A stretch of 64,000 bases of DNA, taken from an uncultured Spirochaetales bacterium (GTDB taxonomy: Bacteria; Spirochaetota; Spirochaetia; DSM-27196; DATKUC01). Location of the stretch: positions 95,592 through 159,591 of the forward strand of contig CAZKMA010000001.1 of assembly GCA_964553615.1 (NCBI GenBank). Direction: 5' to 3'. Below, piece by piece: positions 4,975-60,652 of the stretch. The translations under genes and the position numbers were made by a program. Position 1 is the stretch's first letter, and every line of letters begins with the position of its first letter. The notes under the pieces are model-generated. The model was not told the DNA's origin. It did not search any database and worked only from the letters and a program-made list of their open reading frames with translations.

Positions 4975-4978
4975 AATA

Positions 4979-5338: not shown

Positions 5339-5363
5339 GGGTGTAGTTCTCCTTCAACCGTAA

Positions 5364-5561: not shown

Positions 5562-5587
5562 GGTATTACCTCATTGGAGAGGATGGT

Positions 5588-6194: not shown

Positions 6195-6230
6195 ATATCA
6201 GTATGACCGTGAAACAGAGTATAGCCGATA

Positions 6231-16359: not shown

Positions 16360-16368
16360 GGGCAGAAT

Positions 16369-16453
16369 GCCGGAGTGGTGGAATGGTAGACACAGGGGAC
16401 TTAAAATCCCCTTCGCCGTAAGGCGAGTACGGGTTCAAGTCCCGTCTCCGGTA
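16369..16453 (+). tRNA. tRNA-Leu (anticodon UAA), class II with a long variable arm; CCA not encoded
   Basis: GCCGGAGTGGTGGAATGGTAGACACAGGGGACTTAAAATCCCCTTCGCCGTAAGGCGAGTACGGGTTCAAGTCCCGTCTCCGGTA. It is near-collinear with E. coli tRNA-Leu(UAA). The anticodon loop is CTTAAAA and the T-arm is GGGTTCAAGTCCC. Confidence 0.92.
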
Positions 16454-16474
16454 GAAGAGCCAAGGGTCGAATTG

Positions 16475-40794: not shown

Positions 40795-41232
40795 GTGGAT
40801 AACTACCGGCTTGTGGAACTGCTCAGCCTGGTCAGCCGCAGGATGCACCGATATCTGGTGCCCGTGGCAGAGGCTGAGGGGCTTTCTTTTACCGAAATTG
40901 TTGTGTTGTGGAAAATGAACAGACGCAAGGCGTGCCGGGTCACCGATCTGGCGGGCGAGGTGAGCATGCCGCCGAGCACCCTGACCGGAGTGCTCGATCG
41001 GCTGGTTGCGAAGGGCTTGCTTGTGCGCGTCCCCGACCCTGAAGACCGCAGGGCCGTAATCCTTACGGTCGGTGAACACGTGCCGGATCTTCTTGAGACC
41101 ATGAAGGATGCAAGCCGCGAACGATTATCGGCTGCATTTCGAGCCGTTCCCGATGAACATCTTGAGCGGCTCGCCGGTGACTTGCAGGAGCTGCTCGACT
41201 GTCTTGAAGGCGAAGATGAGGAATCTGTGTGA
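40795..41232 (+). CDS. MarR-family transcriptional regulator
   Basis: wHTH LSFTEIVVLWKMNRRKACRVTDLAGEVSMPPSTLTGVLDRLVAKGLLVRVPDPEDRRAV. The ORF track starts at TTG 40741, inside the promoter/operator, so I place the start at GVG 40795 (TTG 40777 is an alternative). Confidence 0.82.
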   Translation: MDNYRLVELLSLVSRRMHRYLVPVAEAEGLSFTEIVVLWKMNRRKACRVTDLAGEVSMPPSTLTGVLDRLVAKGLLVRVPDPEDRRAVILTVGEHVPDLLETMKDASRERLSAAFRAVPDEHLERLAGDLQELLDCLEGEDEESV

Positions 41233-42806: not shown

Positions 42807-42835
42807 CACACATCTGATGAAAAGAACTCGAAATA

Positions 42836-43555
42836 TTGAAGACGGACAAGAGGTACATTGTGTCAAGGAATAAGATAATCATCATTGTAATTTCCGCTAT
42901 TCTCGCAGGAGGACTCGGAATAATCGGCTTTTATGCATATCAGGGAGCACGCTACGTTTCCACCGACGACGCCCGGGTCAGCGCGGATCTGGTCCATGTG
43001 TCGCCGGAAATCGCCGGCAACCTGCTGGTCTGGAATGTCAAAGAGGGTGATATGGTCACCGCCGGGCAGATTCTCGGGCGGCAGGATCTGGGTGCGGCAA
43101 TGACATCCGGTGCAATGAATCCGTCGTCCATAGCGAACGTAGGCGGTGTGATAGCCCAGAAGGCGCTGCTGAAAGCGCCAATAAGCGGTCAGATCATCAA
43201 GTCCAATGCGGTGGTGGGGCAGATGGTCATACCCGGCACAACTCTTGCCATCATCGCGGACACCGGTGATCTGTACATTTCGGCCGACATAAAGGAGGGC
43301 AATTTTGCCCGGATCCATATCGGCCAGGTTGTGGATGTTCATGTGGACGCGTACCCGGGTACGACCTTCCCCGGACGCATTCAGAATATCGGTCGTGCCA
43401 CCGCATCCACGTTTTCGCTTTTGCCGGCGCAAAACAACTCGGGCAATTACACGAAGGTTACGCAGGTCATCCCCATCAAGATCCATCTTCTCCAGATGGA
43501 CGGCGCCCATCTCATGGTGGGCATGAACGCCAGCATCCGCATCCACGTGGAGTGA
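42836..43555 (+). CDS. EmrA-like (HlyD-family) membrane-anchored periplasmic adaptor lacking the alpha-helical hairpin
   Basis: 239 aa with an N-terminal TM segment. STDDARVSADLVHVSPEIAGNLLVWNVKEGDMVTAGQILGRQD and FSLLPAQNNSGNYTKVTQVIPIKIHL align with E. coli EmrA. Only ~27 aa separate the two lipoyl half-motifs, versus more than 100 aa in EmrA. Confidence 0.8.
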   Translation: MKTDKRYIVSRNKIIIIVISAILAGGLGIIGFYAYQGARYVSTDDARVSADLVHVSPEIAGNLLVWNVKEGDMVTAGQILGRQDLGAAMTSGAMNPSSIANVGGVIAQKALLKAPISGQIIKSNAVVGQMVIPGTTLAIIADTGDLYISADIKEGNFARIHIGQVVDVHVDAYPGTTFPGRIQNIGRATASTFSLLPAQNNSGNYTKVTQVIPIKIHLLQMDGAHLMVGMNASIRIHVE

Positions 43556-43559
43556 TGAC

Positions 43560-44732
43560 ATGAATACAAGGAGTACTTCTGTGGATAAGACTGTATTGAA
43601 GAGGCTGAGCATCGGGCTCGCCGCACTGGCGGTTGTTTTTCTGCTCGGCGCATGTTCTGCAAAGAGTTCGAATCGGGTAACCGTGACAACCGCAGTGTCG
43701 GCCAGGGGAACTGTCGTGAAGAGCGTGAATCTTTCGGGAATTCTCGCCCCTGACCAGACGGTCAATATCTTTTCCGAGCTTGGAGGATACGCGACCAGGG
43801 TGACTGCCGCGGTAGGTGACCCGGTGAAGGCTGGTTCGCTGCTGGTTCAGATAGATGATCGCCAGCTTGAGGCGCAACTCGAGGTGGCTCGCGCCGCGGT
43901 GCAGGCGGTGGATGACCAGGCGGCGCAGGCGAAAATCGGGATTCAGACGGCGAAAGCGAATCTTGACCTGGCGCAAAAGTCCTATGCCCGAATTGACTCG
44001 CTTTTCAAGAGCCAGGCGGTTCCCCGGAACCAGATGGACGATGCCCGGAATAAGCTCGATCTGGCGCAGAGCGCATACGAAAACGCCCAGAAGCAGTATC
44101 AGCAACTCACAGGATCGAGTCTTGCCCAGGCAAAAGCCCGGGTGGACCTCATCCAGGTGCAGATCAGCAACAGCATCATCAGGAGCCCGCTCAGTGGTGT
44201 TGTAACGAACCGCAACGTCAACCCCGGGGAGATGGTCAGCATGGCCGCACCCGTCATGACGATTTCCGATACGTTCACGCTGAAACTGCAGGGTACCGTT
44301 GCGCAGGCTGAGGTACCGCTCATGCACATGGGACAGAAGGTCACGGTGACGGTGGACGGAATGCCGGATGTAACCTTCTCTGGCAGCATCATCCAGATCG
44401 GTCCAGTGGCAGCCTCGACCGGTCAGTATTTTCCGGTGGTCGTTAGTCTGAAGAACGACGGCAGGCTTCTTGCCGGCATGACTGCGATGGCCTCGTTCAA
44501 ATTGACCGGACCGGAGAGAGTGCTTCTCCCGCTGTCAGCAGTGAAGGCTGAAGGTGGTGAAAACTTCGTGTTTGAGGTCCGGAACGGCACCGTTCGGCGC
44601 GTTGCCGTTGAGCTCGGACTCGCGAACTCGACGCAGGTCTCAATTGTCCGCGGACTGGATGCAGGGGTTACGGTTGCAACAAGCAACCTCGGCACGCTCC
44701 AGGACGGCATGGCAGTGACGGTCGGGAACTGA
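43560..44732 (+). CDS. Periplasmic adaptor (membrane-fusion) lipoprotein with a full coiled-coil hairpin
   Basis: Lipobox LAVVFLLGAC|SA. A lipoyl domain, an ~95-aa heptad-rich hairpin (LEAQLEVARAAV...AKARVDLIQVQISN), then beta-barrel and MP domains. Confidence 0.85.
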   Translation: MNTRSTSVDKTVLKRLSIGLAALAVVFLLGACSAKSSNRVTVTTAVSARGTVVKSVNLSGILAPDQTVNIFSELGGYATRVTAAVGDPVKAGSLLVQIDDRQLEAQLEVARAAVQAVDDQAAQAKIGIQTAKANLDLAQKSYARIDSLFKSQAVPRNQMDDARNKLDLAQSAYENAQKQYQQLTGSSLAQAKARVDLIQVQISNSIIRSPLSGVVTNRNVNPGEMVSMAAPVMTISDTFTLKLQGTVAQAEVPLMHMGQKVTVTVDGMPDVTFSGSIIQIGPVAASTGQYFPVVVSLKNDGRLLAGMTAMASFKLTGPERVLLPLSAVKAEGGENFVFEVRNGTVRRVAVELGLANSTQVSIVRGLDAGVTVATSNLGTLQDGMAVTVGN

Positions 44733-44744
44733 AGAGGGGTCGGA

Positions 44745-46169
44745 ATGCGAAAGCAACAATTTCTCCGGAGCAGTGGTGTTCGGTTTGCCTTTCTCATGAC
44801 GCTGGTCTCGGCGTTCCTGTCCGGGCCGATTTACGCACAAGGTGCACCAAAGAGTCTGACAATAGAGCAGGCGGTATCCGCATCGCTTCAACACAGTAAC
44901 GGCATTGAAGGTGCCCTGGCCGACTGGCACAGCGCACAGGAGAAGGCGGCGGAGGCCAGGCTTCAACAGTTGCCGTCCGTTAAGCTCTCCGGTTCCTATA
45001 TGCGTCTGAGCAAGGTTCCCGGCTCCAGCATCCCCCTCGGACCGACGACGACTCTAACCCTCCCGGCGTCGCCCGAGAATGCATTCAATTTCGCCGTTGA
45101 TTTGCAGTACCCGATATTCGCCGGGTTCAGGCTGAAGGAGGCGGTGAAGCTTGCCGAGCTTCAGTCGGCGGGGAAGAAGATCGGGGTGCAGATTGTGCGC
45201 CAGGCACTGCGCTTCGAGGTGCGCAGAGCGTACTGGGAGGCAGTGCGCGCATCCGCGGCCGTCAGTACTATGAAGAAGAATCTCGATCTTGTCGGCGTTA
45301 TGCGAAAAGAGGTGGAGGACGAGGTTACCCAGGGTCTTGCAACTCAGTCCGATTTGCTTCAGGCGGAAGACCGGTACAATCAGGCTCAGCTGATGCTGAC
45401 GGATGCCATATCCGGGAGGAACAAGGCACTCCTTGCACTTTCGTCGTTCATGGGAGACGATTCGGTCGGCGCGCTCATTGCGGGCGGCGCATCGGCCGGC
45501 TTCTCGCTGGACGCGAAACCGGTTTACGATCTCTCGACGAAGGCCTCCGGAGTGCAGTTCCCGAAACTCGAAGCTCCGATAGATCCGCAGAAGCTCCTCT
45601 CCGATGCACTCTCGAATAGGCCGGAGACACAAACGGCAACGGTAGGGGTGGAGAGTGCGCGGCATGCAAAAATGATGAGTCAGGCAGGACTTTTCCCGAC
45701 TCTCGCGCTTATCGGTAACTACACCTATGCGGATCCAAACCAGCGAATTTTCCCAACGGTAGACGGATTCAAAGGCACCTGGAATGTCGGGGTGGCATTG
45801 AGCTTCGATGTCGGGAAGCTTCCGGCAAACGTAGCAGGCTCCACCGCTTCAGCAGATGCGCTGAAAAAGGCCGAAGCGCAGGCGGCACAGGCCAGGGAGT
45901 CCGTGGTGCTGGATGTGCGTACAACCCTGCTTTCGTACGAGCAGGCGAAGCAGGACCTTGGAATGACGAAGGGTATGGTGACCCAGGCGACCGAGAGCCT
46001 GCGCGTAACCAGACAGAAGTACGAGAACGGTCTTGCCAAGCACTCGGACGTCCTCCAGGCAGAGGTTTCACTCCTGCGCGCGCAGTACGGGGTCATCAAC
46101 AAAGAGGTGGATGTTCGCATTGCAGCCGCAGATCTTGCCCGGGCAAGCGCGCTCGATCTGATGCAGTGA
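44745..46169 (+). CDS. TolC-family outer-membrane efflux channel
   Basis: 474 aa with a signal peptide and two OEP repeats (LTIEQAVSASLQHSNGI...; RPETQTATVGVESARHAKMMSQAGLFPTLAL...). Confidence 0.88.
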   Translation: MRKQQFLRSSGVRFAFLMTLVSAFLSGPIYAQGAPKSLTIEQAVSASLQHSNGIEGALADWHSAQEKAAEARLQQLPSVKLSGSYMRLSKVPGSSIPLGPTTTLTLPASPENAFNFAVDLQYPIFAGFRLKEAVKLAELQSAGKKIGVQIVRQALRFEVRRAYWEAVRASAAVSTMKKNLDLVGVMRKEVEDEVTQGLATQSDLLQAEDRYNQAQLMLTDAISGRNKALLALSSFMGDDSVGALIAGGASAGFSLDAKPVYDLSTKASGVQFPKLEAPIDPQKLLSDALSNRPETQTATVGVESARHAKMMSQAGLFPTLALIGNYTYADPNQRIFPTVDGFKGTWNVGVALSFDVGKLPANVAGSTASADALKKAEAQAAQARESVVLDVRTTLLSYEQAKQDLGMTKGMVTQATESLRVTRQKYENGLAKHSDVLQAEVSLLRAQYGVINKEVDVRIAAADLARASALDLMQ

Positions 46170-48769: not shown

Positions 48770-48902
48770 GCTACGCCTCCAGACCACAGTATACACCACA
48801 TCATTGGGGCCGGCAAAGAAAACGTATTGAATTGATAAGGTTCTGCGGTGAGTTGATCTTCCGGGATTCTGTTCGTATGCTGTGAGGAGAATCGAGGAAA
48901 AT

Positions 48903-49703
48903 ATGGAAGATTCCCAGAAGAAAACCGACGGTTATCTGGATCCCACGATAGCGGGGCGCAAGGTTTTTTTCCTCTATCCGCACAGCGTGCTCCAGGAGCA
49001 GCTCATGGAGCTTATCTTTCAAGCCGGGTATGAGGTGTACCTGCTTCGTGAACACACGAAGGTGAAACGTTTGCTCTCCCGCTATCCTGGTTCAATACTC
49101 TTCATTAACATTGACGAGCGTATCCGGGATACGTCCTGGGAAGTATACGTGCGGCAGTTCACGGGGCCGGAAAACACGTACGATATCCGGGTGGGCATAC
49201 TCTCCTATAACGATGATCCCCAACTTGCGCGGCGCTACATCATGGAGATGTCGGTGCAGTGCGGATTCATACGGCTGAAGCTTTCGCTTGCAGAGAGCGC
49301 AAAAATACTTTTGTCCGTGCTTGAGGCGAATGAGGCCCGCGGCACGCGGAAGTTCGTTCGTCTTGCCGTGCCCGAGGACAAGCACATCACGTTCAACGTA
49401 CGGCGCGATCATGCATTTGTTTCAGGGCGGATACTCGACCTGAGCGTTGCGGGAATGGCAGCCGCGTTTGTTGACGAGCAGGACTTACATCCGGGAGACA
49501 CTGTTGAAGATATTCAGCTCAACCTGAGGGGATCCATTGTCCGGGTTGCCGGGAAAATTGCCGGCACGCGAAAGTCCGGTGACAGATTGATCCACGTCAT
49601 TCTGTTCGAAATCGATGACGCGGGGGAATCCCGGAGAAAGCTCCGCACGTTCATTTATGCGTCACTTCAGGCACAGATGGATAAGGTCCTCTCAGGACTG
49701 TGA
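48903..49703 (+). CDS. PilZ-domain c-di-GMP receptor with an N-terminal alpha/beta (receiver-like) domain
   Basis: Trimmed to ATG 48903. The PilZ signature is RKFVR (RxxxR) followed by DLSVAG (DxSxxG). Confidence 0.78.
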   Translation: MEDSQKKTDGYLDPTIAGRKVFFLYPHSVLQEQLMELIFQAGYEVYLLREHTKVKRLLSRYPGSILFINIDERIRDTSWEVYVRQFTGPENTYDIRVGILSYNDDPQLARRYIMEMSVQCGFIRLKLSLAESAKILLSVLEANEARGTRKFVRLAVPEDKHITFNVRRDHAFVSGRILDLSVAGMAAAFVDEQDLHPGDTVEDIQLNLRGSIVRVAGKIAGTRKSGDRLIHVILFEIDDAGESRRKLRTFIYASLQAQMDKVLSGL

Positions 49704-49727: not shown

Positions 49728-50687
49728 TTACCCCCGTTTCTGGAATATTTCCGGATTGTTCAGAAGGTAGCGGACCGTGCTGCGGACTCCGTCTTCAATG
49801 CTTGTCCGCGGTTTCCATCCGAGCGCATTCAGACGGGCGGTATCCAGGTGGACAAAGGGACTATCTCCAATCCATCCTCTCTCCCCACCGGTGAACGAGT
49901 ACGAGACATTTGCAAGACCCATCTCTTCGCAGATGATATCGGCGACCCGCACAACGGGTATCCAGCTATCGTGGCCGAGGTTAAAGGTGTTTTTCCTGTC
50001 ACGGGAGTGTTCCAGTGCTGAGAAGATACCGCTTACCCCGTCTTTCACGTAGAGATAGGACTTCTTCTGCTTGCCGTCTCCGAGAATTTCGAGCTCGGTT
50101 GAGTTGGCGGAGAGTTTCTTGACGAAATCGTAGATGACGCCGTGGGAGTAGCGCTCACCGATCCACGAGACGAATCGAAATGAGAAGGTTCTGATTTCGT
50201 AGTATTCTGAATACGCCTGAATGTACGCCTCCCCGGATGCCTTGCTCGCTCCGTACACCGAGGTCTGTACGAGTTCCGAGCTTTCCGGTGTTGGAAAGGT
50301 GTCCGGTTCACCGTACACAGTTGCGGAACTTGCGAAGGCAAGGGTCTTCCCACCGGTATGCTTTATCGCCTCGAGAACTGAATGTGTTCCCAGTACGTTC
50401 TGATGAAGGTCGATGAGGGTATTTTCCACGCCTCCACGGACGTCCGCGTTCGCTGCCAGGTGGAATACCGTGTCGCAGCCCTCCATGGCCCGGGTAAGGC
50501 GGGCCGTTTCAAGAATATCGCCTTTGATGAACCTTACGCGGGAACCGAACTCCTTCAGGTGCTTTTCGAAACCCGAAGAGAGATTGTCGTAGACTGTGAC
50601 ATCCACTCCCTCGTTTACCAGGCGTTCCACGATGTGGCTGCCTATGAATCCGGCTCCTCCGGTTACCAGTGCTCGTGAGATATCCAA
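49728..50687 (-). CDS. NAD-dependent nucleotide-sugar epimerase/dehydratase (extended SDR)
   Basis: TGGAGFIGSH Rossmann motif and YGASKASGE (YxxxK). Confidence 0.88.
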   Translation of the reverse strand: MDISRALVTGGAGFIGSHIVERLVNEGVDVTVYDNLSSGFEKHLKEFGSRVRFIKGDILETARLTRAMEGCDTVFHLAANADVRGGVENTLIDLHQNVLGTHSVLEAIKHTGGKTLAFASSATVYGEPDTFPTPESSELVQTSVYGASKASGEAYIQAYSEYYEIRTFSFRFVSWIGERYSHGVIYDFVKKLSANSTELEILGDGKQKKSYLYVKDGVSGIFSALEHSRDRKNTFNLGHDSWIPVVRVADIICEEMGLANVSYSFTGGERGWIGDSPFVHLDTARLNALGWKPRTSIEDGVRSTVRYLLNNPEIFQKRG

Positions 50688-50690
50688 CTG

Positions 50691-51830
50691 CTACTCCTGA
50701 TCTTTCAGCTGTTCCAGAACAAAATCAACAATGTCTGCGCTGCCGTTTCGGTCGGTCACGCTTCGAAACGGTTGCAGTGTCTGCTGATAGAGCTTTTCAT
50801 CGCTTGCGAGTGTCTCGATACGTGCGGTAAGATCCGCGGGTCTCGGCGTATAGACGGCGAAACCTCGCTTGACCATATAGTCACGGTTATCCGCCTCATT
50901 CGGTGCTCCGAGACTGTTCACCAGAAGCGGCTTCCTGGTCTTTATTGACTCCATTGCAAAGCTCGTGCCGCATTTCCCCGACAGTACATCCGTAGCAGCA
51001 AACGCAGTTCGCAGATCGGGCAGAAAGCCCACCGGAACTATCTTTGCATACCCTTCCCGTGACGGATAGCGGCGGTGCAGCGATTCGAGCAGATCCGTGT
51101 TCTTTCCTGTCAGTACCAGGATCTGCGCGTTTTTGCCTCGCGCATAGTAGTGGTCGAGAAACGGGAACGCCCTGCCGAGACCCTCTCCGCCAAGGCTGAA
51201 CAGGACGGTAAACAGATCTTCAGTGAGCCCGAGAGAACGGCGGGATTCCGTACGGTCAGGAAGGTCTCCGAGAAGCTCATCCTGAACGACCAGTGAAATG
51301 ACCCGGATATTCTTCCGGGCTATACCGATATGCATGAGCGAGGCAAGCGCCTCCTCGGAGAGGCAGAAATACATGTCGGCACCGCATTTTATCTGTGGAT
51401 AGGCGCGGGCGAACTCCGAAAAAACATAGTAGATCGGGTATGTAAGTCCGGAGGCCGAACGAGCATGATCGAAAACGTGACCGCATCCCCAGTGGGTGGG
51501 CAGGACGAGATCCGGATGATATCCATCCAGGAACTGAAGTACGTGCGGCAGCGCCTCGCTCATGGCCCGACGACTCGCAATCTTGAACGCCCAGGGAACC
51601 ACGCTGTTCAACTTGAACAGGATTGTTTTCACCCAGTTCGGTTGGGCGAGAATCTTCAGCCAGGATCTGACATACAGATCGGTGAGCCGTTCGCCGGGCA
51701 GCTCGGCTCCGACATCCATGAGCCGCACCTCCCAGTCCGGGCGCCTGCGTTTGAACTCCGCTTCAATTGCCCGCGCAAACGAGATGTGTCCGAAACCGGC
51801 ATTGAAGTACGGGATGAGTACGCGTTTCAT
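50691..51830 (-). CDS. UgtP/MGDG-synthase-type (GT28) diacylglycerol glycosyltransferase
   Basis: KRVLIPYFNAGFGHISFARAI, LTGKNTDLLESL and TDVLSGKCGTSFAMESIKTRKPLLV...NEADNRDYMVKRGFAV are collinear with B. subtilis UgtP (KRVLILTANYGNGHVQVAKTL, VCGKNTALKESL, ITKPGGITLTEA...). Confidence 0.75.
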   Translation of the reverse strand: MKRVLIPYFNAGFGHISFARAIEAEFKRRRPDWEVRLMDVGAELPGERLTDLYVRSWLKILAQPNWVKTILFKLNSVVPWAFKIASRRAMSEALPHVLQFLDGYHPDLVLPTHWGCGHVFDHARSASGLTYPIYYVFSEFARAYPQIKCGADMYFCLSEEALASLMHIGIARKNIRVISLVVQDELLGDLPDRTESRRSLGLTEDLFTVLFSLGGEGLGRAFPFLDHYYARGKNAQILVLTGKNTDLLESLHRRYPSREGYAKIVPVGFLPDLRTAFAATDVLSGKCGTSFAMESIKTRKPLLVNSLGAPNEADNRDYMVKRGFAVYTPRPADLTARIETLASDEKLYQQTLQPFRSVTDRNGSADIVDFVLEQLKDQE

Positions 51831-51837
51831 TTCGCTG

Positions 51838-52407
51838 CTACACCCGGAGGGCGTCGGCGGTAAGGAGGTTTACCAGGTTATGGTTCAGAATCAGGTGCAA
51901 GTCTTCGGCAATTTGCATGTGATCGATTTTCAGACAGATATTGTGCTGTGCAGTCTGTTGCAGCTTACCGGTCTTATAGCCGGTGATACCGATCGTGATT
52001 CCGTCGTTCCTGTTCGCATATTCGACAGCCTTCAGGATGTTCGGCGAGTTCCCGCTGCCCGACAGCCCAATGACTACATCCCCCGGACGCAATGCGTTCT
52101 TGAGCTGCTCCACGAAGATGTCATCGTATGAAACGTCGTTCGCGAATGCGAGAAGGGTAGAACTGTTGTCCGACAACGCAAAGGCGTTGTAGCGGCGCGA
52201 GTAGCCGTAGCTCGCCCCCTTGCCGAGATCGCACGCCATGTGGCTTGCCATTGCTGCGGATCCGCCGTTGCCGCACACATATATCGCGGCCCGTCTTTCT
52301 CCGGCTTCGCGGATGACTTCGGCCACGTGGATGAGTTCATCCCGGGACACCGAATCCAGCGTCTTCTTCAGCTCCTCGAAGTACTCATCGATGATCTTTC
52401 TGTCCAT
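51838..52407 (-). CDS. gmhA: Sedoheptulose-7-phosphate isomerase (SIS domain)
   Basis: IYVCGNGGSAAMASHMACDL...GDVVIGLSGSGNSPNI is the GmhA pattern. Confidence 0.85.
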   Translation of the reverse strand: MDRKIIDEYFEELKKTLDSVSRDELIHVAEVIREAGERRAAIYVCGNGGSAAMASHMACDLGKGASYGYSRRYNAFALSDNSSTLLAFANDVSYDDIFVEQLKNALRPGDVVIGLSGSGNSPNILKAVEYANRNDGITIGITGYKTGKLQQTAQHNICLKIDHMQIAEDLHLILNHNLVNLLTADALRV

Positions 52408-52428
52408 TTTCCTGTCTCCTCTTTCTGA

Positions 52429-53406
52429 TCAGTGACTGTAGACAACGACCGACCCGGCGTGATCGAACCGGAACTGCAGCTCGCGAAGGTCCGAAAGCGC
52501 ATGTCGGACGCGTTCCCGGCTGTGGGACGGCACGTAAAACAGAAGGAAACCGCCGCCTCCCGCTCCGAGCAGCTTCCCGCCGGTTGCGCCTGATGATATG
52601 GCAAGGTCGTGATAGTGGTCTATTTTCGGGTTACTGACACCCGAGGCAAGTTCCTTTTTATAGTGCCAGGATGCGTGAAGTATCTCTCCCAGTGCGTCTA
52701 TGTTCTGCTGCTCGAGTTCGCGCCGGAGATCCAGGGCGAGTCCGGTCATCTTCCGCAATCCGGCACGCTTGTCCGCCTGTTTCTCCAGGTTCGATTTCTG
52801 TTCGGCGAGGATGCCTCCGGCCGAGCGCACATCTCCGGTATAGAAGACGAGCAGGTTTTCCTGGAGTTGCTCCCGATGCGCTATATCCATCGTGACAGGT
52901 TCAACGATGACCTCTTCGTCCGGAGAGAAGGTTATGAAGTTCAGCCCGCCGTACGCCGCGGCGTACTGGTCCTGTTTGCCGATTGGTTCGTTGAGCCGTC
53001 CAATTTCCACTTCTGACGCTGTCGCGGCAAGATACTCTTTTCCGGCGAAACGCCCGGCGTATGCACAGAGTGCGTGTACGAGCCCGACCGTGAACGTGCT
53101 GGATGAACCGAGCCCCGTTCCCGCGGGAATATCTGCAACGCTCGAAATATCCACGCCCGAGACATTGAACATCGAAAGCACCTCTCGAAGAATAGGGTGC
53201 TTGATGTCCCGTATATTCTCCACCAGCTCAGTCTCCGAATATTTCAGGAGCGTCTGTTCGGCGTAGAAGTAGGGGTGGATGGAGATATACATGTACTGGT
53301 TGATGGAAGTGGAAAGCACCATTCCCGGTTCATGCTGGTAGTAGGCACGCAGGTCGCTGCCGCCTCCGGCGAAGCTGATGCGAAACGGTGTTCTGCATAC
53401 AATCAT
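52429..53406 (-). CDS. hddA: GHMP sugar kinase, D-glycero-alpha-D-manno-heptose-7-phosphate kinase type
   Basis: RTPFRISFAGGGSDL at the N-terminus and the PAGTGLGSSSTFTVGL GHMP motif, in a gmhA/hddC context. Confidence 0.8.
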   Translation of the reverse strand: MIVCRTPFRISFAGGGSDLRAYYQHEPGMVLSTSINQYMYISIHPYFYAEQTLLKYSETELVENIRDIKHPILREVLSMFNVSGVDISSVADIPAGTGLGSSSTFTVGLVHALCAYAGRFAGKEYLAATASEVEIGRLNEPIGKQDQYAAAYGGLNFITFSPDEEVIVEPVTMDIAHREQLQENLLVFYTGDVRSAGGILAEQKSNLEKQADKRAGLRKMTGLALDLRRELEQQNIDALGEILHASWHYKKELASGVSNPKIDHYHDLAISSGATGGKLLGAGGGGFLLFYVPSHSRERVRHALSDLRELQFRFDHAGSVVVYSH

Positions 53407-54725
53407 ACGGCACCTTTCAGGATAGAGTTCACCGCCTCAGGGACGGAATCGAATCGGTGGGTGTAGCGCGCAGTGACCGTGTCTCCAGCTACTCCCTGGT
53501 GGGACGCCTGAGCCTCCGCATCTGCTACCGAACCAATGAACAGGGAAGCGCGGAGGCCCGCCCGAATTCCAGCTTGCGTGTCCCGGATATTATCTCCAAC
53601 GATGAAGGACGAGGCAAGGTCGATGTTGAACCGTTCGGCGGCACTGAGAATCATTCCGGGCTTTGGTTTGCGGCAGTCACAATCTATCTTGAGTTCGGGG
53701 ACCTCGCCCGGCCAGCCCTTCTCCGGGTGGTGAGGACAATAATAGAGCGCGTCCACGAACGCTCCTTCAATACCGAGGAGGGTATCCATCTTTGCATGGA
53801 CGGCATACAGGGTCTCTTCGGTCATCAGGCCTTTTGCAATGAACGGCTGATTGGTTACCACCACCGCCAGATAGTCGCTTGCGTTTATCTTCCGCAGCGC
53901 CTGCACAATGCCGGAAGTGAGCTCGAACTCCGCCGGAGAGAGGACACCGCCGGACTCGGTATTTATTATTCCGTCCCGATCGAGGAATATGCATTTCTGC
54001 CGGGATTCCAGGTTTCGCCGTGCCGGTTTGTCAGCCGAAAGGTCCTGCTCGACTTCCGAGAGCCTTTCAGGCGTTCCCATGTCCTTCAAATATTCCGGGG
54101 TCGAATATGCGCGAAGGGTCTCTCCCGCGGCCAGCACCGCCGGAAACACGTGCTTTCCCAGATCGCAGGCACCGTTTCGTGGAATGTACCGGAAAATCTG
54201 CGGGCCAAGGACGTAGAGCGCCGCGTTTACGAGGTTTCGGTACGTGCCCTCGTTGTGCGGTTTCGGGTGAAATGCGCGAACCGTCCATCCGTCACCGGTC
54301 TCTACAAGGTCCGAATCGGCAGGATGGCTGTTCGGATGCACGACGAGAGTACCGGCGGCAGGCACCTGCCGGTGAAACTCGACAAGCGCACGCAGGTTCA
54401 TGTCCACGAAGACATCGCCGTACAGGACGAGAAAATCGTCCTCGATCGAGTCTTCAACCTGCAGGAGGGCGCCACCGGTGCCCAGCGGTTCGGATTCGAT
54501 CCGGTATTCGATTCTAACTCCGTAGCGGCTCCCGTCACCAAGGTGGTCGACGATGACCGATGCCAGGTAGCCGGCAAGGATGACCACTTCGTTGAATCCG
54601 TACCGGGCCGCGAGTCGGACCTGATGTTCTATGATGGGAACGCCGCGGACCGGCGCCATCGGTTTCGGTATGTTCGAGAGTCCAAGCCGCGTGCCTTTGC
54701 CGCCGGCGATAATGACACATTTCAT
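53403..54725 (-). CDS. Fusion protein: sugar-1-phosphate nucleotidyltransferase (HddC-like) + HAD-IIIA heptose-1,7-bisphosphate phosphatase (GmhB-like)
   Basis: Trimmed to MKCVIIAGGKGTRLG (NTP-transferase G-loop). The C-terminal half has FLDRDGIIN (the HAD DxD nucleophile motif), VVTNQP and CRKPKPGM. Confidence 0.82.
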   Translation of the reverse strand: MKCVIIAGGKGTRLGLSNIPKPMAPVRGVPIIEHQVRLAARYGFNEVVILAGYLASVIVDHLGDGSRYGVRIEYRIESEPLGTGGALLQVEDSIEDDFLVLYGDVFVDMNLRALVEFHRQVPAAGTLVVHPNSHPADSDLVETGDGWTVRAFHPKPHNEGTYRNLVNAALYVLGPQIFRYIPRNGACDLGKHVFPAVLAAGETLRAYSTPEYLKDMGTPERLSEVEQDLSADKPARRNLESRQKCIFLDRDGIINTESGGVLSPAEFELTSGIVQALRKINASDYLAVVVTNQPFIAKGLMTEETLYAVHAKMDTLLGIEGAFVDALYYCPHHPEKGWPGEVPELKIDCDCRKPKPGMILSAAERFNIDLASSFIVGDNIRDTQAGIRAGLRASLFIGSVADAEAQASHQGVAGDTVTARYTHRFDSVPEAVNSILKGAV

Positions 54726-54765: not shown

Positions 54766-55479
54766 TCATCGCTTGTCCCGGTACGCCTGAACCAGCGCCT
54801 TCACGATACGGGCGGTCATTCCCCATATCTGGTGTTTGTCCCAGGAATACACAAAAAGAATGTGCTCGCGCTCTCCCCAGCTCCGGTGGTAGCGCTCCGG
54901 CAATCCCAGTTCCCGGGCAGGAAATGTGTAGACCTCCCTGCCTGTTTCGTCCGTGTAGAAGGAGCGGACCTCGCTGTGTGCGGTATAACGTTCAGGCTCG
55001 GTCCGGACGAAGTAAGAAAAGGGGACGGAGAACACCTCCGCCACCTCCGACTCAGCCGGGTTGAGCTCATCTATTCCGGTTATGCGCAGGATGCCCGGGT
55101 ACACATCAACTGTGGCGCCGTGTCCGGTAACCACTGTGCCGATTCTTCGATACGCACGGATGCGACCCGACGGAATGCCCAATTCCTCCATCGTCTCCCG
55201 TACTGCGGTGTCTTTCGTTGAACGGTCGTGCTTGTCGTCGAAACCGCCCCCGGGAAAACTGATTTCTCCCGGCTGACGAATGTTCTGGGCACGTTTCTCG
55301 AAAACGAGGTGATATTCTGAATCAATGAGCAGGAAGGGGGCGAGCACCCCTCCGACAAACTGATCGTCCTCGGGAATGGCACCTGGATTGCGATCGAACC
55401 GTCGAAGTATCCGTTTGATGTCTCGAATCTGTTTCATAGCAATGAGTTCAGTATACCAGCGAAGCAGAACGGGAGCCAT
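54766..55479 (-). CDS. NUDIX hydrolase, CoA-pyrophosphatase (NudL/NUDT7)-like
   Basis: GEISFPGGGFDDKHDRSTKDTAVRETMEELGI is the Nudix box with the upstream FPGG context typical of CoA pyrophosphatases. The start is uncertain (ATG 55479 or 55437). Confidence 0.78.
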   Translation of the reverse strand: MAPVLLRWYTELIAMKQIRDIKRILRRFDRNPGAIPEDDQFVGGVLAPFLLIDSEYHLVFEKRAQNIRQPGEISFPGGGFDDKHDRSTKDTAVRETMEELGIPSGRIRAYRRIGTVVTGHGATVDVYPGILRITGIDELNPAESEVAEVFSVPFSYFVRTEPERYTAHSEVRSFYTDETGREVYTFPARELGLPERYHRSWGEREHILFVYSWDKHQIWGMTARIVKALVQAYRDKR

Positions 55480-55518: not shown

Positions 55519-56934
55519 CTATTCGCTGTCGAAGATCTTACCCGGGTTCATAATGCCGTTCGGATCCCATGCGTTCTTGATTGCGCGCATGAGATGAAGC
55601 TCGGTCGGATCAATGATTTCGGACATGTACTTCTTGCGCTTCAGCCCTATTCCGTGTTCGCCGCTTATCTTTCCACCGAGTTTTTTCGTAATTGCATACA
55701 GCTCGCGAAGTGCCTGAGGCTCAATCGCGTGCCACTCCTCCATGGTGTGATCAGGGTTCTTGACCAGCGTTGCATGGAGATTTCCGTCTCCTGCGTGTCC
55801 GTAGCACGGGATCTGGATGCCGTACTTGCCGGAGATGCGTTCGAGCTCGGGTATGATGTCCGGGATGGCGGATATGGGTACGACAATGTCTTCGAGGCTC
55901 TGGACCGGGCTGTATACCTTGAACGCCTCGGCAATGTTTCGCCGGACACTCCAGATGCGCTCCTGGGTTGTGTAGTTGTCCGCAACGTAGACTTCTATTG
56001 CCCCGTTATTCATGCACAAGTCTCCGGTCGTCTCCAGATCGGATTCCACCTGTTTCGGATCGGTCCCGTCGATCTCGATCAGGAGCATTGCTCCGCACTG
56101 GTCGTAGGGAAGTGTTTCGTTGAGGTATCTGCAGGAGGTCTGGACCGAAAGTCGATCCATGAACTCGATGCTCGTAGGAATGATTCCTCGTCCCATGAGA
56201 AGCGGCACGCAGTCTATCGCCTCTTTCGGGGACCCGAACAGGCAGAGCAGGTCCCCCTTCGCCGTGGGAAGCCCGGTGAGCTTGACAATTGCCTTGGTTA
56301 CAATTCCCAGAGTTCCTTCCGAGCCGACGACAAGCTGCTTCAGGTCATACCCGGTTACGTCCTTCGCGAGTTTTCCGCCAAGCCAGACAATTTCTCCAGT
56401 CGGCGTAACAAGCTCGAGACCCATGATGTACCGGCCGGTAACCCCGTACTTTACCGCCTTCCCGCCACCCGCGTTTTCTGCAATGTTGCCGCCGAGAAAG
56501 CAGGTTTCGAGACTCATTGGGTAGCCCGCATAGAAGAGCCCCTTTTCCCGTATGGCGCTGTTTATTTCGTTGGTGACAATGCCGGTCTCAGCAACAATCA
56601 TCATGTTGCCGTAATCGATCTCGATGATGCTGTTCATCTTTTCCACAGAGAGTACAATGCCGCCATAGATCGGGATGGCACCTCCCGAAAGACCCGAACC
56701 CGCCCCTCGCGGGGTTATCGGTATCCGTTCCCGGTTCGCAAGTTTCACGACGTCCGCAACCTGTTCGGCGGTTGTCGGCGTTACCGCAACCTCCGGCATG
56801 TGGCCGTACTCCTGTGCAGAGGTCTCGTCGTGTGAATATGTCTCCAGCTTCTCCATATCCGAGATCACATTCTGTCTTCCGACGATTTCCGAAAGTTCGT
56901 CGACGATTGCTCGGGTTACCGCGTTGTATGTCAT
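55519..56934 (-). CDS. FAD-binding oxidase (GlcD/D-lactate dehydrogenase family), Lct-type dehydrogenase subunit
   Basis: 471 aa with an FAD_binding_4 N-domain (PRGAGSGLSGGAIP) and a C-terminal GEHGIGLKRKKYM. ATGA overlap with etfA. Confidence 0.88.
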   Translation of the reverse strand: MTYNAVTRAIVDELSEIVGRQNVISDMEKLETYSHDETSAQEYGHMPEVAVTPTTAEQVADVVKLANRERIPITPRGAGSGLSGGAIPIYGGIVLSVEKMNSIIEIDYGNMMIVAETGIVTNEINSAIREKGLFYAGYPMSLETCFLGGNIAENAGGGKAVKYGVTGRYIMGLELVTPTGEIVWLGGKLAKDVTGYDLKQLVVGSEGTLGIVTKAIVKLTGLPTAKGDLLCLFGSPKEAIDCVPLLMGRGIIPTSIEFMDRLSVQTSCRYLNETLPYDQCGAMLLIEIDGTDPKQVESDLETTGDLCMNNGAIEVYVADNYTTQERIWSVRRNIAEAFKVYSPVQSLEDIVVPISAIPDIIPELERISGKYGIQIPCYGHAGDGNLHATLVKNPDHTMEEWHAIEPQALRELYAITKKLGGKISGEHGIGLKRKKYMSEIIDPTELHLMRAIKNAWDPNGIMNPGKIFDSE

Positions 56935-57938
56935 GCCGGATTGCCCTTTTCAGAAGCCCTGGCGAGCCGCAGGGTAAGACGTGGAAGGACTTCGAACAGA
57001 TCTCCCACAATGCCAAAATCCGCAATCTTGTGAATCGGGGCCTCCGGATCCACGTTGATGGAGACTATTGTCCCGGCGGTTTTTATTCCGGCAAGGTGCT
57101 GGATTGAACCGGAAACTCCTGCGGCAATGTAGAGTTTGGGGGATATCGTCTTCCCGCTCAACCCGACCTGGTGAGGGTATTCGATCCATCCACGGTCAAC
57201 AGCATCGCGGCTCGCGCCCACGGCGGCACCGAGCCGTTCAGCGAGTGCCCGGATGAGCTTGAAATTGTCCGCGCGCTTCAGCCCGCGGCCTCCTGCCACA
57301 ACGATATCCGCTTCTTCCAGATTGACGAACGCTTCGCCTTCGCTGCGATATCCGAGGACTTCTACTCGGGAGTCGAAGAGCTCCTCCGGTACCGGCACCT
57401 CAATTATCTTGCCGATGCGAGTCCGGTCTTCCGGAAGCGGTCGCGATGATTTCGGACGGACCGTAGCCATTTGCGGGCGATGATGCGGGGTCTTGATGGT
57501 TGCCATGATATTCCCCCCTATTGCCGGCCGCGTCTGCAGCAGATTGTGCGTCTCAGGTTCTATGTCGAGTTCCGTACAGTCGGCGGTCAGCCCCGAATGT
57601 GCCCGTACAGCGACATGAGGCATGAGTGTTCGCCCGGAAGACGTGGCCGCGGCGAGGACCGAATGGGGATGGTACTGCCTGATCAGAAAAAGAAGGATAT
57701 TGCTGAACGATTCGCACACAAACTCGGAGAGCCGTGGATCGTTCACGTAGTAGACCTCGTCCGCGCCATGATAAATGAGCCGGTTGAGCTCTTCCGGCGC
57801 AATGTCGCTTCCGAAGACTATGGATGCAAGCCGTGTTTCGAGGGTATCCGCCAGCCGTCTGCCGCGGGAGAGTAGCTCGAAGGAGACGTTTTTCAACCGA
57901 CCACCGGTCTGTTCGGCAATTGTCCAGACAAAACTCAT
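56931..57938 (-). CDS. etfA: Electron transfer flavoprotein, alpha subunit
   Basis: VWTIAEQTGGRL...IVVAGGRG...LGAAVGASRDAVDRGW...QVGLSGKTISPKLYIAAGVSGSIQHLAG. Confidence 0.92.
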   Translation of the reverse strand: MSFVWTIAEQTGGRLKNVSFELLSRGRRLADTLETRLASIVFGSDIAPEELNRLIYHGADEVYYVNDPRLSEFVCESFSNILLFLIRQYHPHSVLAAATSSGRTLMPHVAVRAHSGLTADCTELDIEPETHNLLQTRPAIGGNIMATIKTPHHRPQMATVRPKSSRPLPEDRTRIGKIIEVPVPEELFDSRVEVLGYRSEGEAFVNLEEADIVVAGGRGLKRADNFKLIRALAERLGAAVGASRDAVDRGWIEYPHQVGLSGKTISPKLYIAAGVSGSIQHLAGIKTAGTIVSINVDPEAPIHKIADFGIVGDLFEVLPRLTLRLARASEKGNPA

Positions 57939-57953
57939 GGCTGCCGTCCTCTT

Positions 57954-58751
57954 TCAGATGATTTCTTTTTGCCGGAGATACTCGAGCAGTTGATCCACAG
58001 CAGTTTCGATCCCCTCGTCGTCCGTCGCCGTGACAAGCACTCCGTTGCGCGCCACCTTCGGATGCTGAATTTTCACTACGCGCGTCGGCGACCCGTTCAG
58101 ACCGATGAATGATTCGTCGAGTGGCATAGACTCTGCGGTGTATACCGGAATCTCTGCAAGCCGTGCGCGCTTCTTGCCGCCAAGAGTTGGCAGGCGCGGC
58201 GGAGCAATCTCTTTGACGACAGTCAGAAGCGCCGGAAGCGGCAACCTCAGTCTTTGATACCCCTCTTCAACCAGCCGTTCTACGGTCAGTCCGGTCGAAT
58301 CGATTTCGGAAATTCTGCTTACGTAGGTTGCAACCGGAAGATCAAGCCACGCGGCGATTCCCGGTCCGACCTGACCGGTATCTCCGTCCGTGGCGCGTTC
58401 TCCGCACAGCACCAGATCGAATGCGCCGGCTTTCCGGATTGCCTGCGCAAGCGTGTAGCTGGTTGCCCATGTATCGGAGCCCGCGAACTTCCTGTCGGAA
58501 ACAAGAATCCCATTGTCGCAACCCATTGCAAGCGCCTCGCGGATAGCCGAAACTGCCATGCTGGGTCCCATGCTCAGTACCGTGATCTGTCCGCCGAACC
58601 GTTCTTTGATCCGCACCCCGACTTCGATGGCGTACAGATCGAGCGGATTGACGACCGTCCCGACACCATCGCGAATCATAGTACCGGTTTCGGGATCCAT
58701 CTTGACGTTGCTTGTTTCCGGAACCTGTTTGATTGGAATGGCGATGTTCAC
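57954..58751 (-). CDS. etfB: Electron transfer flavoprotein, beta subunit
   Basis: (V)NIAIPIKQVPETSNVKMDPETGTMIRDG...NPLDLYAIE. The start is taken at GTG 58751 (AGGAG 7 nt upstream), after the lctP stop. Confidence 0.9.
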   Translation of the reverse strand: MNIAIPIKQVPETSNVKMDPETGTMIRDGVGTVVNPLDLYAIEVGVRIKERFGGQITVLSMGPSMAVSAIREALAMGCDNGILVSDRKFAGSDTWATSYTLAQAIRKAGAFDLVLCGERATDGDTGQVGPGIAAWLDLPVATYVSRISEIDSTGLTVERLVEEGYQRLRLPLPALLTVVKEIAPPRLPTLGGKKRARLAEIPVYTAESMPLDESFIGLNGSPTRVVKIQHPKVARNGVLVTATDDEGIETAVDQLLEYLRQKEII

Positions 58752-58761
58752 GACGGTGCTC

Positions 58762-60441
58762 CTAAAAGAGATTCGGGACAATCCAGTAGACTGCGATGAT
58801 TCCGATTATTCCGGCCGCGAACGAGTAGATGAGTGTCGGGATGAGGTTGCGCCGGATAACCTTTCCTTCTTTTCCGAGCACACCCACAGTCGTGCATGCT
58901 GCGACAACATTGAACACGCAGATCATGTTCCCCGCGGCCCCACCCACTGCCTGGAGACCCACCGTTACAATCCGGGAGATGCCTGCGTCCGTGGCCACGC
59001 CAAACTGAAATCCGGAAAACAGGATGTTGGACACCGTGTTGCTGCCCGACATGAACGCTCCAAGCACTCCGATGAGGGGCGCGAAAAGCGCCCACACGGA
59101 ACGAAAGATCTGCGCAGCACCCTTTGACAGGACCTGCATCATGCCCGCTGCGCCCGAGGCGTTGTTGGTGGAGTTGAGCATGACCTGCACGAGTGCAACG
59201 GCGAAAACGAGCGACACTGCTGCGGGAATAACCTGTGTGAGTGATTTTGTCCACGTTTCCCGAACTTTTTCCCGGTTCATCCGGTGAAGAGGAACGGTTA
59301 TGAGTGCAACGAGCATGAACGGTACGGTACCGGGCAGGTAGAGCAGCTGAAGCGCGTAGTTCAGCTTTGTTCCGAAGATGGCGGGCCAGCGGATCGTAAC
59401 CGCGGGATCCGTCAGGATCTGCTTGAGGCCAAATGCAGGAATCCGGGTCAACACCAGGATTACCGAGATGAGCAGGTACGGGGTCCACGCAAGGAAGGCG
59501 CCGATCCTTGATTCTTCGGTATCGAACTTTCCGACATCCGCTACGCCTCCCCATTCCGAGTTCCATGACTCACGCGGCCCGAAATCCCAGGCGGTCGCCG
59601 GCTGCAGAAAGCCACGGCGAGCGGCAAAGACCGTTATGGCGAGACCGATTAAGGCGCCGAGCAAAGAGGGAAGCTCCGGCCCGACGAACAGTGCTATGAG
59701 CAGATAGGGCAGTGTAAAACTCAAACCCGCGAATATGGCAAATGGGGCAACGGCAAACCCTTCGCGGAATGACCGATTTGGGCCGAAGAACCGGGTCAGT
59801 ATGACCACGATCATGAGCGGGACGAACGTCCCGATAATTGCATGGGGGATTGCCGCCCATACGCCGACCTGGTGCAGAAAGTCTCCCGTGGTCAGTCCTG
59901 CCGCCTGGATGGTGTTCACGATATCAGGCGATCCAAGTACCGAGGAGACGCCGCCGATAATGGGTGTACCCACTGCGCCGAAGCTGACCGGTGTGCTGTC
60001 GCCAATGAGTGCGAGTGTTGCCGCCGCCATCGGCGGAAAGCCAAGGCCGACCATCAACGGTCCGGCAAGTGCCGCCGGGGTCCCGAAACCCGCCGCCCCT
60101 TCTATGAGCGCAACGAAAAGGAACGCTGCGATTATTGCCTGTATCCTCCGGTCGGGACTTACCCCGAAGAACGTGCGATTGATTGCCCTGATTGCGCCGC
60201 TTGTCCGCAGAGTGTTCATGAGCAGGATTGCGCCAAATACGATAACGAGGATGTTCATCCCGCTCAGTGCTCCGTAGATGGAAGCACCCGCGAGCCACTG
60301 AAACGGCATTTGCCAGACGGCCGCAGCCAGAACGACCGCGACGGCCCAGGACAGGGGCATTACCCATTTTGCAGGCCACGTAAGTCCAACCATCAGGACA
60401 ATGGTCAGCAGGATCGGGAGCGAGGCGAGTACTACGAGCAT
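58762..60441 (-). CDS. lctP: L-lactate permease (LctP/LldP family)
   Basis: Polytopic. [11 protein letters not shown]... matches the LldP N-terminus (LIASLPILFFFF). The start is placed at ATG 60441 (GGAGGG 5 nt upstream). The ORF track extends to TTG 60534. Confidence 0.85.
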
Positions 60442-60652
60442 ATGCACCCTCCGAAATGGCGCTCTTTGTATCGCGGTATGTTGGATAACATGGTAGATGG
60501 TCTGACCAAACATATTCTTTACCCGAACCGACAATCTGTCAACGAAATCTTTCTATTCTCTACTGCGCGGAGTCGGGGTAGACCATAGTCGGATTTAATA
60601 TAGTCCGTTTGGTTTATATCCACTCTTCGCGTAGATACTCCAAATTTAGACC

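Follow-up and report, generated by a model that had tools for sequence, protein, structure and literature searches.

A five-gene operon in which genes predicted to provide a nucleotide-activated heptose stand next to a gene for a lipid-type glycosyltransferase is present in a 64,000-nucleotide stretch of DNA from an uncultured Spirochaetales bacterium (contig CAZKMA010000001.1 of assembly GCA_964553615.1, positions 95,592 to 159,591; the whole stretch is referred to here as the window). We propose that this operon makes a heptose-bearing membrane glycolipid, heptose being transferred from GDP-heptose, possibly in 4-epimerised form, onto diacylglycerol (DAG) or a similar lipid, and from sequence comparisons we put the probability of this reading at about one half. 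The five open reading frames (ORFs) are all on the minus strand between window positions 49728 and 54725, and the gaps and overlaps calculated from the ORF listing are −4, 21, 7 and 3 nt in order, just as stated in a preliminary description of the region, whose gene identities also hold at the level of protein family in Pfam, NCBIfam and Protein Data Bank (PDB) searches. From the first gene to the last, they are as follows.

53403-54725, minus strand: fusion of an NTP_transferase domain (HddC-like, residues about 1-235) and a HAD-IIIA domain (GmhB-like, about 240-440); Pfam, NCBIfam and PDB matches
52429-53406, minus strand: GHMP kinase of the HddA type (D-glycero-D-manno-heptose 7-phosphate 1-kinase); NCBIfam and PDB matches
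51838-52407, minus strand: SIS-domain sedoheptulose-7-phosphate isomerase, GmhA-like; Pfam, NCBIfam and PDB matches
50691-51830, minus strand: GT-B glycosyltransferase of the monogalactosyldiacylglycerol (MGDG)-synthase/UgtP branch of GT28, a proposed lipid heptosyltransferase; profile and fold matches
49728-50687, minus strand: extended short-chain dehydrogenase/reductase (SDR) of the GDP-sugar 4-epimerase (GDP-Gal4E) subgroup; PDB matches and residue alignment

The reading frame of the fusion gene is open to position 54755, and the ATG at 54725 is the likelier start in view of the length of its homologues (424-436 aa); its stop codon is overlapped by 4 nt by the start of the kinase gene. The SDR gene starts with a TTG codon, with the sequence AGGAG 7 nt upstream.

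In the pathway that we propose, the GmhA-like isomerase would convert sedoheptulose 7-phosphate to D-glycero-D-manno-heptose 7-phosphate, the HddA-type kinase would make the alpha-1,7-bisphosphate, the GmhB domain of the fusion protein would strip off the 7-phosphate to leave the alpha-1-phosphate, and the nucleotidyltransferase domain would make from it a nucleoside diphosphate (NDP)-heptose, for which GDP is the favoured nucleotide. These four steps are proposed because the pathway is an established one and the family matches agree with it; the remaining two we infer from gene context. The SDR might optionally epimerise the NDP-heptose, a change at C4 being the simplest and giving D-glycero-D-talo-heptose, and the transferase, which resembles MGD1, would put the heptose on DAG or a similar lipid alcohol with inversion, so that a beta-glycoside would result, with His15 as the base. 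In some relatives a protein resembling MprF-type flippases may then carry the product across to the outer leaflet.

The heptose cassette and its predicted epimerase

The first three genes are likely to encode the four activities of the route to NDP-D-glycero-D-manno-heptose, an assignment made at the level of family rather than of orthologue, since all matches of the operon proteins to NCBIfam equivalog models lie below the curated cut-offs. Three of the four activities (GmhA, HddA and GmhB) have a heptose-pathway enzyme as their best match in both NCBIfam and the PDB. The isomerase matches Pfam SIS_2 (E-value, 2e-20) and its best NCBIfam match is gmhA (TIGR00441; 7e-30, 104 bits against a cut-off of 209), while phosphoheptose isomerases make up 13 of its 16 PDB matches, including the top ten (best 1tk9, 1e-23). 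The kinase has HddA as its best NCBIfam match (1e-46, 160 bits against a cut-off of 600); its best PDB matches run from 7.5e-45 (3k85, the best) to 1e-37 and include the HddA/WcbL structures 4usk/4usm and 4n3o, and its GHMP motif, PAGTGLGSSS, is intact. The fusion protein matches Pfam NTP_transferase (3.4e-30) and HAD models. Its GmhB part scores 157 bits with NCBIfam PRK08942 (cut-off 178), matches the GmhB structure 2gmw at 2e-34 and, with 132.6 bits, is above the cut-off of 84 for the histidinol-phosphatase-domain subfamily TIGR01656. The motifs GGKGTRL, DRDG, VTNQ, CPHHP...CDCRKP (the Zn loop) and GDNIRD (GDxxxD) are all present in the translation, and with these motifs and the structure match the protein has the features of GmhB, a HAD-IIIA 7-phosphatase with a Zn-binding loop.

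It is in the fourth activity that the preliminary description, which had seen a complete GDP-heptose route in these genes, went further than the matches do. The nucleotidyltransferase part scores 152 bits with the mannose-1-phosphate guanylyltransferase model of NCBIfam as opposed to 77 bits with HddC (cut-off 300), and in the PDB it matches a UDP-glucose pyrophosphorylase (UGPase; 8x7s, 6e-32) and GMPPB (7d72, 8e-25) ahead of HddC (5xhw, 1e-15). We favour GDP as the probable nucleotide because the domain is closest to mannose-1-phosphate guanylyltransferases and because its partner is a GDP-type SDR.

The GDP-heptose route is reportedly the subject of work by Kneidinger et al. from 2001. The known GDP-heptose pathways (reviewed in PMC10680097) have the same four activities, and the nearest structures are those of GmhA (1tk9), HddA (3k85) or WcbL (4usk), GmhB (2gmw) and, more distantly, HddC (5xhw). 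The window differs from these pathways in that nucleotidyltransferase and phosphatase are fused, an architecture that is uncharacterised although very common (>7,900 matches at E<=1e-30). Where the known pathways have sets of dehydratases, epimerases and reductases (DmhA/DmhB, Cj1427-1430), the window has one SDR of the GalE-like 4-epimerase type, and whereas their product goes to polysaccharide, the window cassette leads to a lipid-type transferase.

The preliminary description had offered a DmhA/DmhB-like and a GalE-like placement for the SDR; by its matches it is a member of the GDP-sugar 4-epimerase subgroup and not a generic GalE. Its PDB matches are headed by PhGal4E_1 (8rdg, 2.6e-80) and by proteins of Archaeoglobus fulgidus (3ehe, 7e-79) and Pyrobaculum calidifontis (3icp/3aw9, 1e-62/1e-58), with the next group, the ordinary UDP-glucose 4-epimerases, at 1e-35. 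The structures at the head of this list have been grouped together as archaeal 4-epimerases with promiscuous activity and a preference for GDP-sugars (PMC12171764). Over 314 aa the SDR and PhGal4E_1 are 45 % identical, and the SDR has the motifs TGGAGFIGSH, SSATVYG (of the epimerase type) and YGASK, with the catalytic S/T-Y-K triad present. The key residues of PhGal4E_1 are P80, R83, N174 and H182, plus a Trp that stacks on GDP (PMC12171764). With PhGal4E_1 and its relatives (8rdg/8rdh, 3ehe, 3icp/3aw9) the SDR shares the triad (including Y145 and K149), R83, H182 and the Trp of an 'RGW' sequence, which is a candidate only for the GDP-stacking Trp. It differs from the archaeal subgroup in having Ala for P80 and Ser for N174, a residue whose replacement by alanine in PhGal4E_1 abolished activity on UDP-glucose (PMC12171764), as well as in its bacterial host and in being embedded in a heptose cassette. 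Two other assignments were rejected, that of a DmhA/DmhB-like dehydratase or reductase on the SSATVYG motif and the weaker matches to GMD (4e-11) and to dTDP-glucose dehydratases in the PDB (1e-25 to 3e-29), and that of an HldD-like 6-epimerase on a score of 77 bits against a cut-off of 275. We propose NDP-heptose as the compound that the SDR epimerises, and this may be its natural substrate; positions other than C4 are possible.

Similar cassettes were sampled in three contexts from other lineages, where the fusion proteins are about 50 % identical to that of the window. Kinase, isomerase and a PhGal4E_1-like SDR are within or abut the cassette in all three:

L091, 6066-9866: cassette with PhGal4E_1-like SDR
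L092, 6066-9856: cassette with PhGal4E_1-like SDR
L093, 7001-10822: cassette with PhGal4E_1-like SDR, here located between fusion and kinase genes

The SDRs of these loci share 41-43 % identity with the window SDR and 42-45 % with PhGal4E_1. The cassettes are inside polysaccharide-type clusters with glycosyltransferases of families GT2, GT1 or GT8 and no MGDG-like transferase, which suggests that PhGal4E_1-like SDRs travel with the heptose module and not with the transferase. The occurrence of the SDR in cassettes with other transferases argues for an NDP-heptose substrate, and it argues against the more conservative account given in the preliminary description, in which SDR and transferase would be a GalE and galactosyl-DAG pair.

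The glycosyltransferase and its linkage to the cassette

The sole glycosyltransferase of the operon is, as had been claimed, a member of the family that glycosylates DAG. The single sequence scores 24.5 bits with the Pfam MGDG_synth model (PF06925, cut-off 25) and matches an NCBIfam diglucosyl-DAG synthase at 3e-19, and a profile of its family matches Arabidopsis MGD1 in the PDB over the full length (4wyi, 9e-55), UgtP at 1e-42 (9wde) and MurG at 1e-8. An AlphaFold2 model built with 18 sequences (pLDDT 91.7) has MGD1 (4x1t/4wyi) as its top Foldseek match, with a TM-score of 0.83. Profile and model thus place the protein firmly in the MGD1/UgtP (DAG-glycosylating) branch of GT28, and a MurG-like reading was rejected on the same E-values. 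In MurG, the contacts with the base are mediated by the backbone, so that the sequence says little about the donor nucleotide; it is the gene context that points to GDP-heptose.

His15 of the transferase (in 'AGFGH') aligns with H155 of MGD1 (in 'GGGH') and is nearly invariant in the family and across 72 aligned relatives; H155 is the catalytic base of MGD1 (PMC7419546). Residues K286, E294 and E312 of the C-domain, which binds the nucleotide sugar, are conserved in the family. There is no transmembrane segment (maximum KD19 of 1.13), and helices at residues 47-77, which are amphipathic with aromatic and basic residues, are at the position of the LOOP with which MGD1 captures DAG. The protein therefore looks like a soluble and monotopic, lipid-directed and inverting GT-B enzyme that has the fold, the catalytic His in a G-x-G-H motif, the C-domain Lys and Glu residues and the amphipathic N-domain insert in common with MGD1 and UgtP. 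It is, however, only about 20 % identical to these enzymes, and in an alignment of the 72 relatives with MGD1 and UgtP the sequence 'GAPNE' (PNE) stands where the latter two have 'GQE', a motif that contacts the sugar. Nor are two lipid-contacting residues of MGD1 kept: T151, which contacts DAG, and R156, which contacts the activator phosphatidylglycerol (PMC7419546), correspond to A11 and I16. Its gene neighbours also set the transferase apart: instead of UDP-hexose genes, those for an NDP-heptose pathway and for a GDP-type epimerase lie beside it.

Close homologues of the transferase are few, with 17 among 5.8 billion proteins; among 1.84 billion 50 %-identity representatives there are 24 matches at E<=1e-30 and 3,115 at E<=1e-3. 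Genomic contexts were collected from contigs encoding homologues, from one genome scan and from one metagenome scan, and were screened by tblastn with the window proteins. We refer to contexts whose transferases are 41-68 % identical to that of the window as tier 1 and to those with 33-38 % identity (about 35 contigs, many from peat, soil or sediment) as tier 2. The cassette adjoins the transferase gene, immediately upstream, in 8 of the 11 distinct tier-1 contexts (the window, L001/L004/L010, L089/L009, L006, L011, L007, L002 and L090), so that the co-occurrence of transferase orthologues with heptose genes, which the preliminary description had named as a test, is in fact seen in most of them. 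At least five of the eight linked contexts are distinct in their flanking genes, and in each of the eight the tier-1 transferase is the only glycosyltransferase nearby. In a neighbour-joining tree the cassette-linked members span the whole clade, including the basal L002, L090 and L007, and the three unlinked members are nested among them; we therefore take the linkage to be ancestral and to have been lost or relocated at least three times.

Two sequence features were tried as predictors of the donor and rejected. The 'GAPNE' motif sets both tiers apart from the UDP enzymes but does not tell cassette-linked from unlinked members, and a 'G[FY]LP' loop, although specific to tier 1, deviates only in L088.

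Some of the tier-1 loci have additional genes. At L007 two SAM-methyltransferase genes and a small ORF (4957-6580) are located between the GmhA and transferase genes, with the SDR gene on the opposite strand, which suggests that the heptose is possibly O-methylated in this lineage. At L003 (5172-13439) the transferase is 50 % identical to that of the window and is encoded among genes for three SDRs of the 3-beta-HSD/NAD_binding_4 type, an Rce1-like protein and an MMPL protein with sterol-sensing-domain matches, in the arrangement SDR-Rce1-SDR-GT-...-MMPL; a shorter contig with the same transferase has a PlsC-type acyltransferase gene directly downstream. This branch hints at a different lipid acceptor or export route. 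The L005 locus adjoins a prophage.

A gene for a PF03706 protein, of the MprF-type flippase-like family, is found between the GmhA and transferase genes in L002 and L090, and a homologue (37-44 % identical) is directly downstream of the transferase gene in more than 20 tier-2 loci; none was found by tblastn anywhere in the window, which thus has no such synthase and flippase pair. This recurrent neighbour is the strongest indirect evidence that the transferase family makes a membrane lipid, to which it points by gene context. The arrangement is like that of ypfP-ltaA of Staphylococcus aureus, where a synthase is likewise paired with a flippase and synthesis on the inner face is followed by flipping, a sequence of events that for the relatives considered here is proposed from the genes alone; LtaA is, however, a major facilitator superfamily (MFS) protein and not of the PF03706 (MprF) type. 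No heptose genes were found in the tier-2 contexts (about 35 contigs). About 30 of these contigs (L018-L049; for example L031, 6150-10192) share a four-gene module encoding an SDR (Epimerase/NAD_binding_4, ~350 aa), an Rce1-like CPBP protein, the MGDG-synthase-like transferase and the PF03706 protein, which looks like an uncharacterised glycolipid system. We note that many transferases of this module have lost the otherwise invariant ribose-binding Glu, E294 being replaced by Met, Leu or Ser.

Alternative readings, precedent and significance

Several observations weigh against a heptose-bearing glycolipid as the product of the window operon. Every characterised member of the MGD1/UgtP branch uses UDP-hexoses, to judge by the names of the PDB matches, and the enzymes of the cassette are assigned by family and below the equivalog cut-offs. 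The nucleotidyltransferase is nearer to mannose-1-phosphate guanylyltransferases and a UGPase than to canonical HddC, so that GDP is no more than the probable nucleotide, and PhGal4E_1 also accepts UDP-glucose (PMC12171764). Since 'GAPNE' is found in tier-2 relatives without heptose genes as well, it is no heptose signature. The closest relative, L088/L008 (transferase 67-68 % identical), keeps the Nudix hydrolase and transferase genes but has neither cassette nor SDR; it is otherwise syntenic with the window (nuo, Nudix-GT, PilZ-CBS-UPF0259-GNAT), with the lactate genes described below missing too. L003 and L005 have no cassette within 8 kb of the transferase gene. Finally, a 47-aa remnant of the SDR (66 % identical to that of the window) downstream of the transferase gene in L006 (7143-7283) is an apparent case of pseudogene decay of the epimerase in one lineage. 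The heptosyl-lipid suggestion of the preliminary description thus draws support from the cassette linkage, the GDP-type SDR and the PF03706 neighbours, and loses some of it to the three loci without cassette and to a nucleotide that is probable rather than certain. We regard the prediction as coherent and as having good comparative support, yet the chemistry that it extends is known and the extension could have been foreseen, and in the closest relative the transferase is kept although the cassette is not beside it.

The transferase could instead be an ordinary UDP-glucose- or UDP-galactose-dependent DAG enzyme, perhaps fed by the SDR as a UDP-hexose 4-epimerase, with the cassette serving a transferase encoded elsewhere (for a lipo-oligosaccharide core, a capsule, flagellin or an S-layer glycan). 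The UDP-hexose donors of the characterised enzymes, the loci L088, L003 and L005, where the transferase is kept and no cassette adjoins it, the promiscuity of PhGal4E_1, which epimerises UDP-glucose (PMC12171764), and the service of cassettes elsewhere to GT2, GT1 and GT8 clusters are all in keeping with such a separation of functions. It is harder to reconcile with an adjacency that is found right across tier 1, even where the transferases are only 41 % identical, and in five different settings of flanking genes, with no other transferase nearby. Moreover, the SDRs go with the cassette and not with the transferase, which is found without an SDR in L006 and L088, and the nearest relatives of the window SDR prefer GDP-sugars, N174, which is needed for the activity of PhGal4E_1 on UDP-glucose, being Ser in the window protein. 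We consider separate functions unlikely, although they deserve serious attention.

Less probable again is a transfer of heptose to an acceptor other than DAG, such as a polyprenyl-phosphate-linked intermediate (as with MurG), a fatty alcohol or diol, a lipid of the sterol or hopanoid kind, or a glycolipid already present, on which the enzyme would act processively or lengthen a chain, as may apply to the internal heptose of the Acholeplasma modicum lipid discussed below. GT28 includes MurG, UgtP is processive according to the molecule name of 9wde, the DAG and phosphatidylglycerol contacts of MGD1 are A11 and I16 in the transferase, and transferases of L003 and tier 2 are encoded beside NAD_binding_4/3-beta-HSD-type SDRs, Rce1-like proteins, an MMPL transporter and an acyltransferase, all of which would suit an acceptor of this kind; but the similarity to MurG is marginal (1e-8) beside that to MGD1 and UgtP, and neither the window nor the cassette-linked loci contain genes for an unusual lipid acceptor. 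That the cassette activates some other sugar, a hexose or octose derivative, and makes no heptose nucleotide at all seems to us very improbable. The scores are well under the cut-offs (HddA 160/600, gmhA 104/209, HddC 77/300) and the fused clade is without a characterised member in the literature, but isomerase, kinase and phosphatase all match heptose-pathway enzymes best, the combination of four activities is the one that defines the heptose pathway, and the Zn loop and HAD motifs of GmhB are intact.

In literature on heptosyl-DAG, on GDP-heptose together with glycolipids, on heptose glycolipids of spirochaetes and on the HddC-GmhB fusion, no such system was found to be described; what appears to be new is a GT28 lipid glycosyltransferase tied to an NDP-heptose pathway with a GDP-type epimerase, the parts being members of known families. 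The product had been called unusual, and this is borne out in so far as the combination was not found in the literature, but it is tempered by a lipid of Acholeplasma modicum reported in 1974. The heptose of that lipid is said to be an internal residue of its pentasaccharide and not to be attached to DAG. The lipid, a heptose-containing pentaglycosyl diglyceride (Mayberry, Smith & Langworthy 1974, cited in PMC4221730), gives heptose a chemical precedent in a glycosyl-diacylglycerol, although no enzyme or gene is known to have been assigned to it, and its source is a mollicute and not a spirochaete. Acholeplasma oculi carries GDP-heptose pathway genes (PMC4221730).

The glycoglycerolipid synthases of this family that are known from bacteria and plants all use a UDP-hexose. 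If a heptose-bearing glycolipid is indeed the product, GT28 would gain a new kind of donor and the known membrane glycolipids a new member, and the operon would be the first to offer a candidate gene for glycosyl diglycerides with heptose, which are known from the chemical work of 1974 on Acholeplasma. With more reserve, and as a possibility that falls short of even odds, we suggest that the transferase is the first enzyme of the MGDG-synthase/UgtP family (GT28) with GDP-heptose, possibly the 4-epimer, as donor, and that it would make a beta-heptosyl-DAG that serves as an envelope glycolipid or lipoglycan anchor in uncultured Spirochaetia; a corollary, put forward just as tentatively, would be that a widespread four-gene cassette (fusion, kinase, isomerase and GDP-Gal4E-like SDR) makes epimerised GDP-heptose for many glycans. 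Many spirochaetes display glycolipids instead of classical lipopolysaccharide, and heptose metabolites are agonists of innate immunity, with ADP-, CDP- and UDP-heptose acting on ALPK1. A heptosyl surface lipid would thus be relevant to the biology of the envelope and perhaps to recognition by a host. The presence of a PhGal4E_1-like SDR at all three of the other cassettes sampled also suggests NDP-heptose as the natural substrate of a subgroup that has so far been studied for its promiscuity only.

Flanking genes

The tightly spaced, same-strand array continues upstream of the fusion gene with a 40-nt gap, a Nudix hydrolase gene and a lactate-utilisation-type set (GlcD-EtfA-EtfB-LctP), up to divergent nuo genes at 61 kb, and because of this the transcription unit may be longer than five genes. 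A scan for promoters and terminators gave site counts equal to those expected from shuffled sequence, with none in the intergenic gaps, and is uninformative on operon boundaries. The genes of this upstream array are:

54766-55479, minus strand: Nudix hydrolase, CoA-pyrophosphatase-like (Pfam NUDIX, 1e-6; NCBIfam PRK10707, 63.5 bits, cut-off 134)
55519-56934, minus strand: GlcD-like FAD oxidase
56931-57938, minus strand: EtfA
57954-58781, minus strand: EtfB
58762-60534, minus strand: lactate permease (LctP)

The Nudix gene is directly upstream of the cassette in L001/L004 (L004, 4377-5054), L006 (2127-2804) and L089 (6242-6919), and directly upstream of the transferase gene in L088/L008 (L088, 2951-3679); the divergent loci L002, L007 and L090 do not have it. 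It was set aside as a core gene on this distribution, being kept in close relatives only, and its membership of the system is uncertain, since it could reflect plain synteny or could have an accessory role related to nucleotide sugars or CoA. The lactate set (55519-60534) is missing in L088, where nuoA is directly divergent from the Nudix gene, and in L004, L089 and L006 an MFS (TRI12-like) gene takes its position. Of the sigma-70-like matches in the region, the best (10/12) is at 60542-60514, at the start of the lactate-gene array.

On the other side of the operon a PilZ-domain gene (48882-49703, plus strand) is convergent with the SDR gene, with 24 nt between the stop codons, and a PilZ gene is at the same position in L004, L006, L088 and L089. 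A GGDEF protein is encoded at 16475-18196, and a link between c-di-GMP and the glycolipid genes is possible.

A Pfam scan of 30 window ORFs, which took in 20 of the larger ORFs outside the region and did not cover smaller ones, gave no other glycosyltransferase. Searches of the whole 64 kb with Rfam and ARAGORN gave a tRNA-Leu (anticodon TAA; 16368-16454, plus strand) as the sole match, and thus no riboswitch near the operon. An MFS transporter gene (41229-42806, plus strand), a putative membrane-fusion protein gene (43560-44732, not part of the scan) and a gene for what by eye is a TolC-like outer-membrane factor (44745-46169) together look like a tripartite efflux system (41229-46169, plus strand); should this be right, the organism would have an outer membrane. 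A copy of the cassette's fusion protein with 100 % identity is encoded on a 5.3-kb Logan contig (P0021), and the metagenome-assembled genome that contains L001 is labelled 'Spirochaetia bacterium'.

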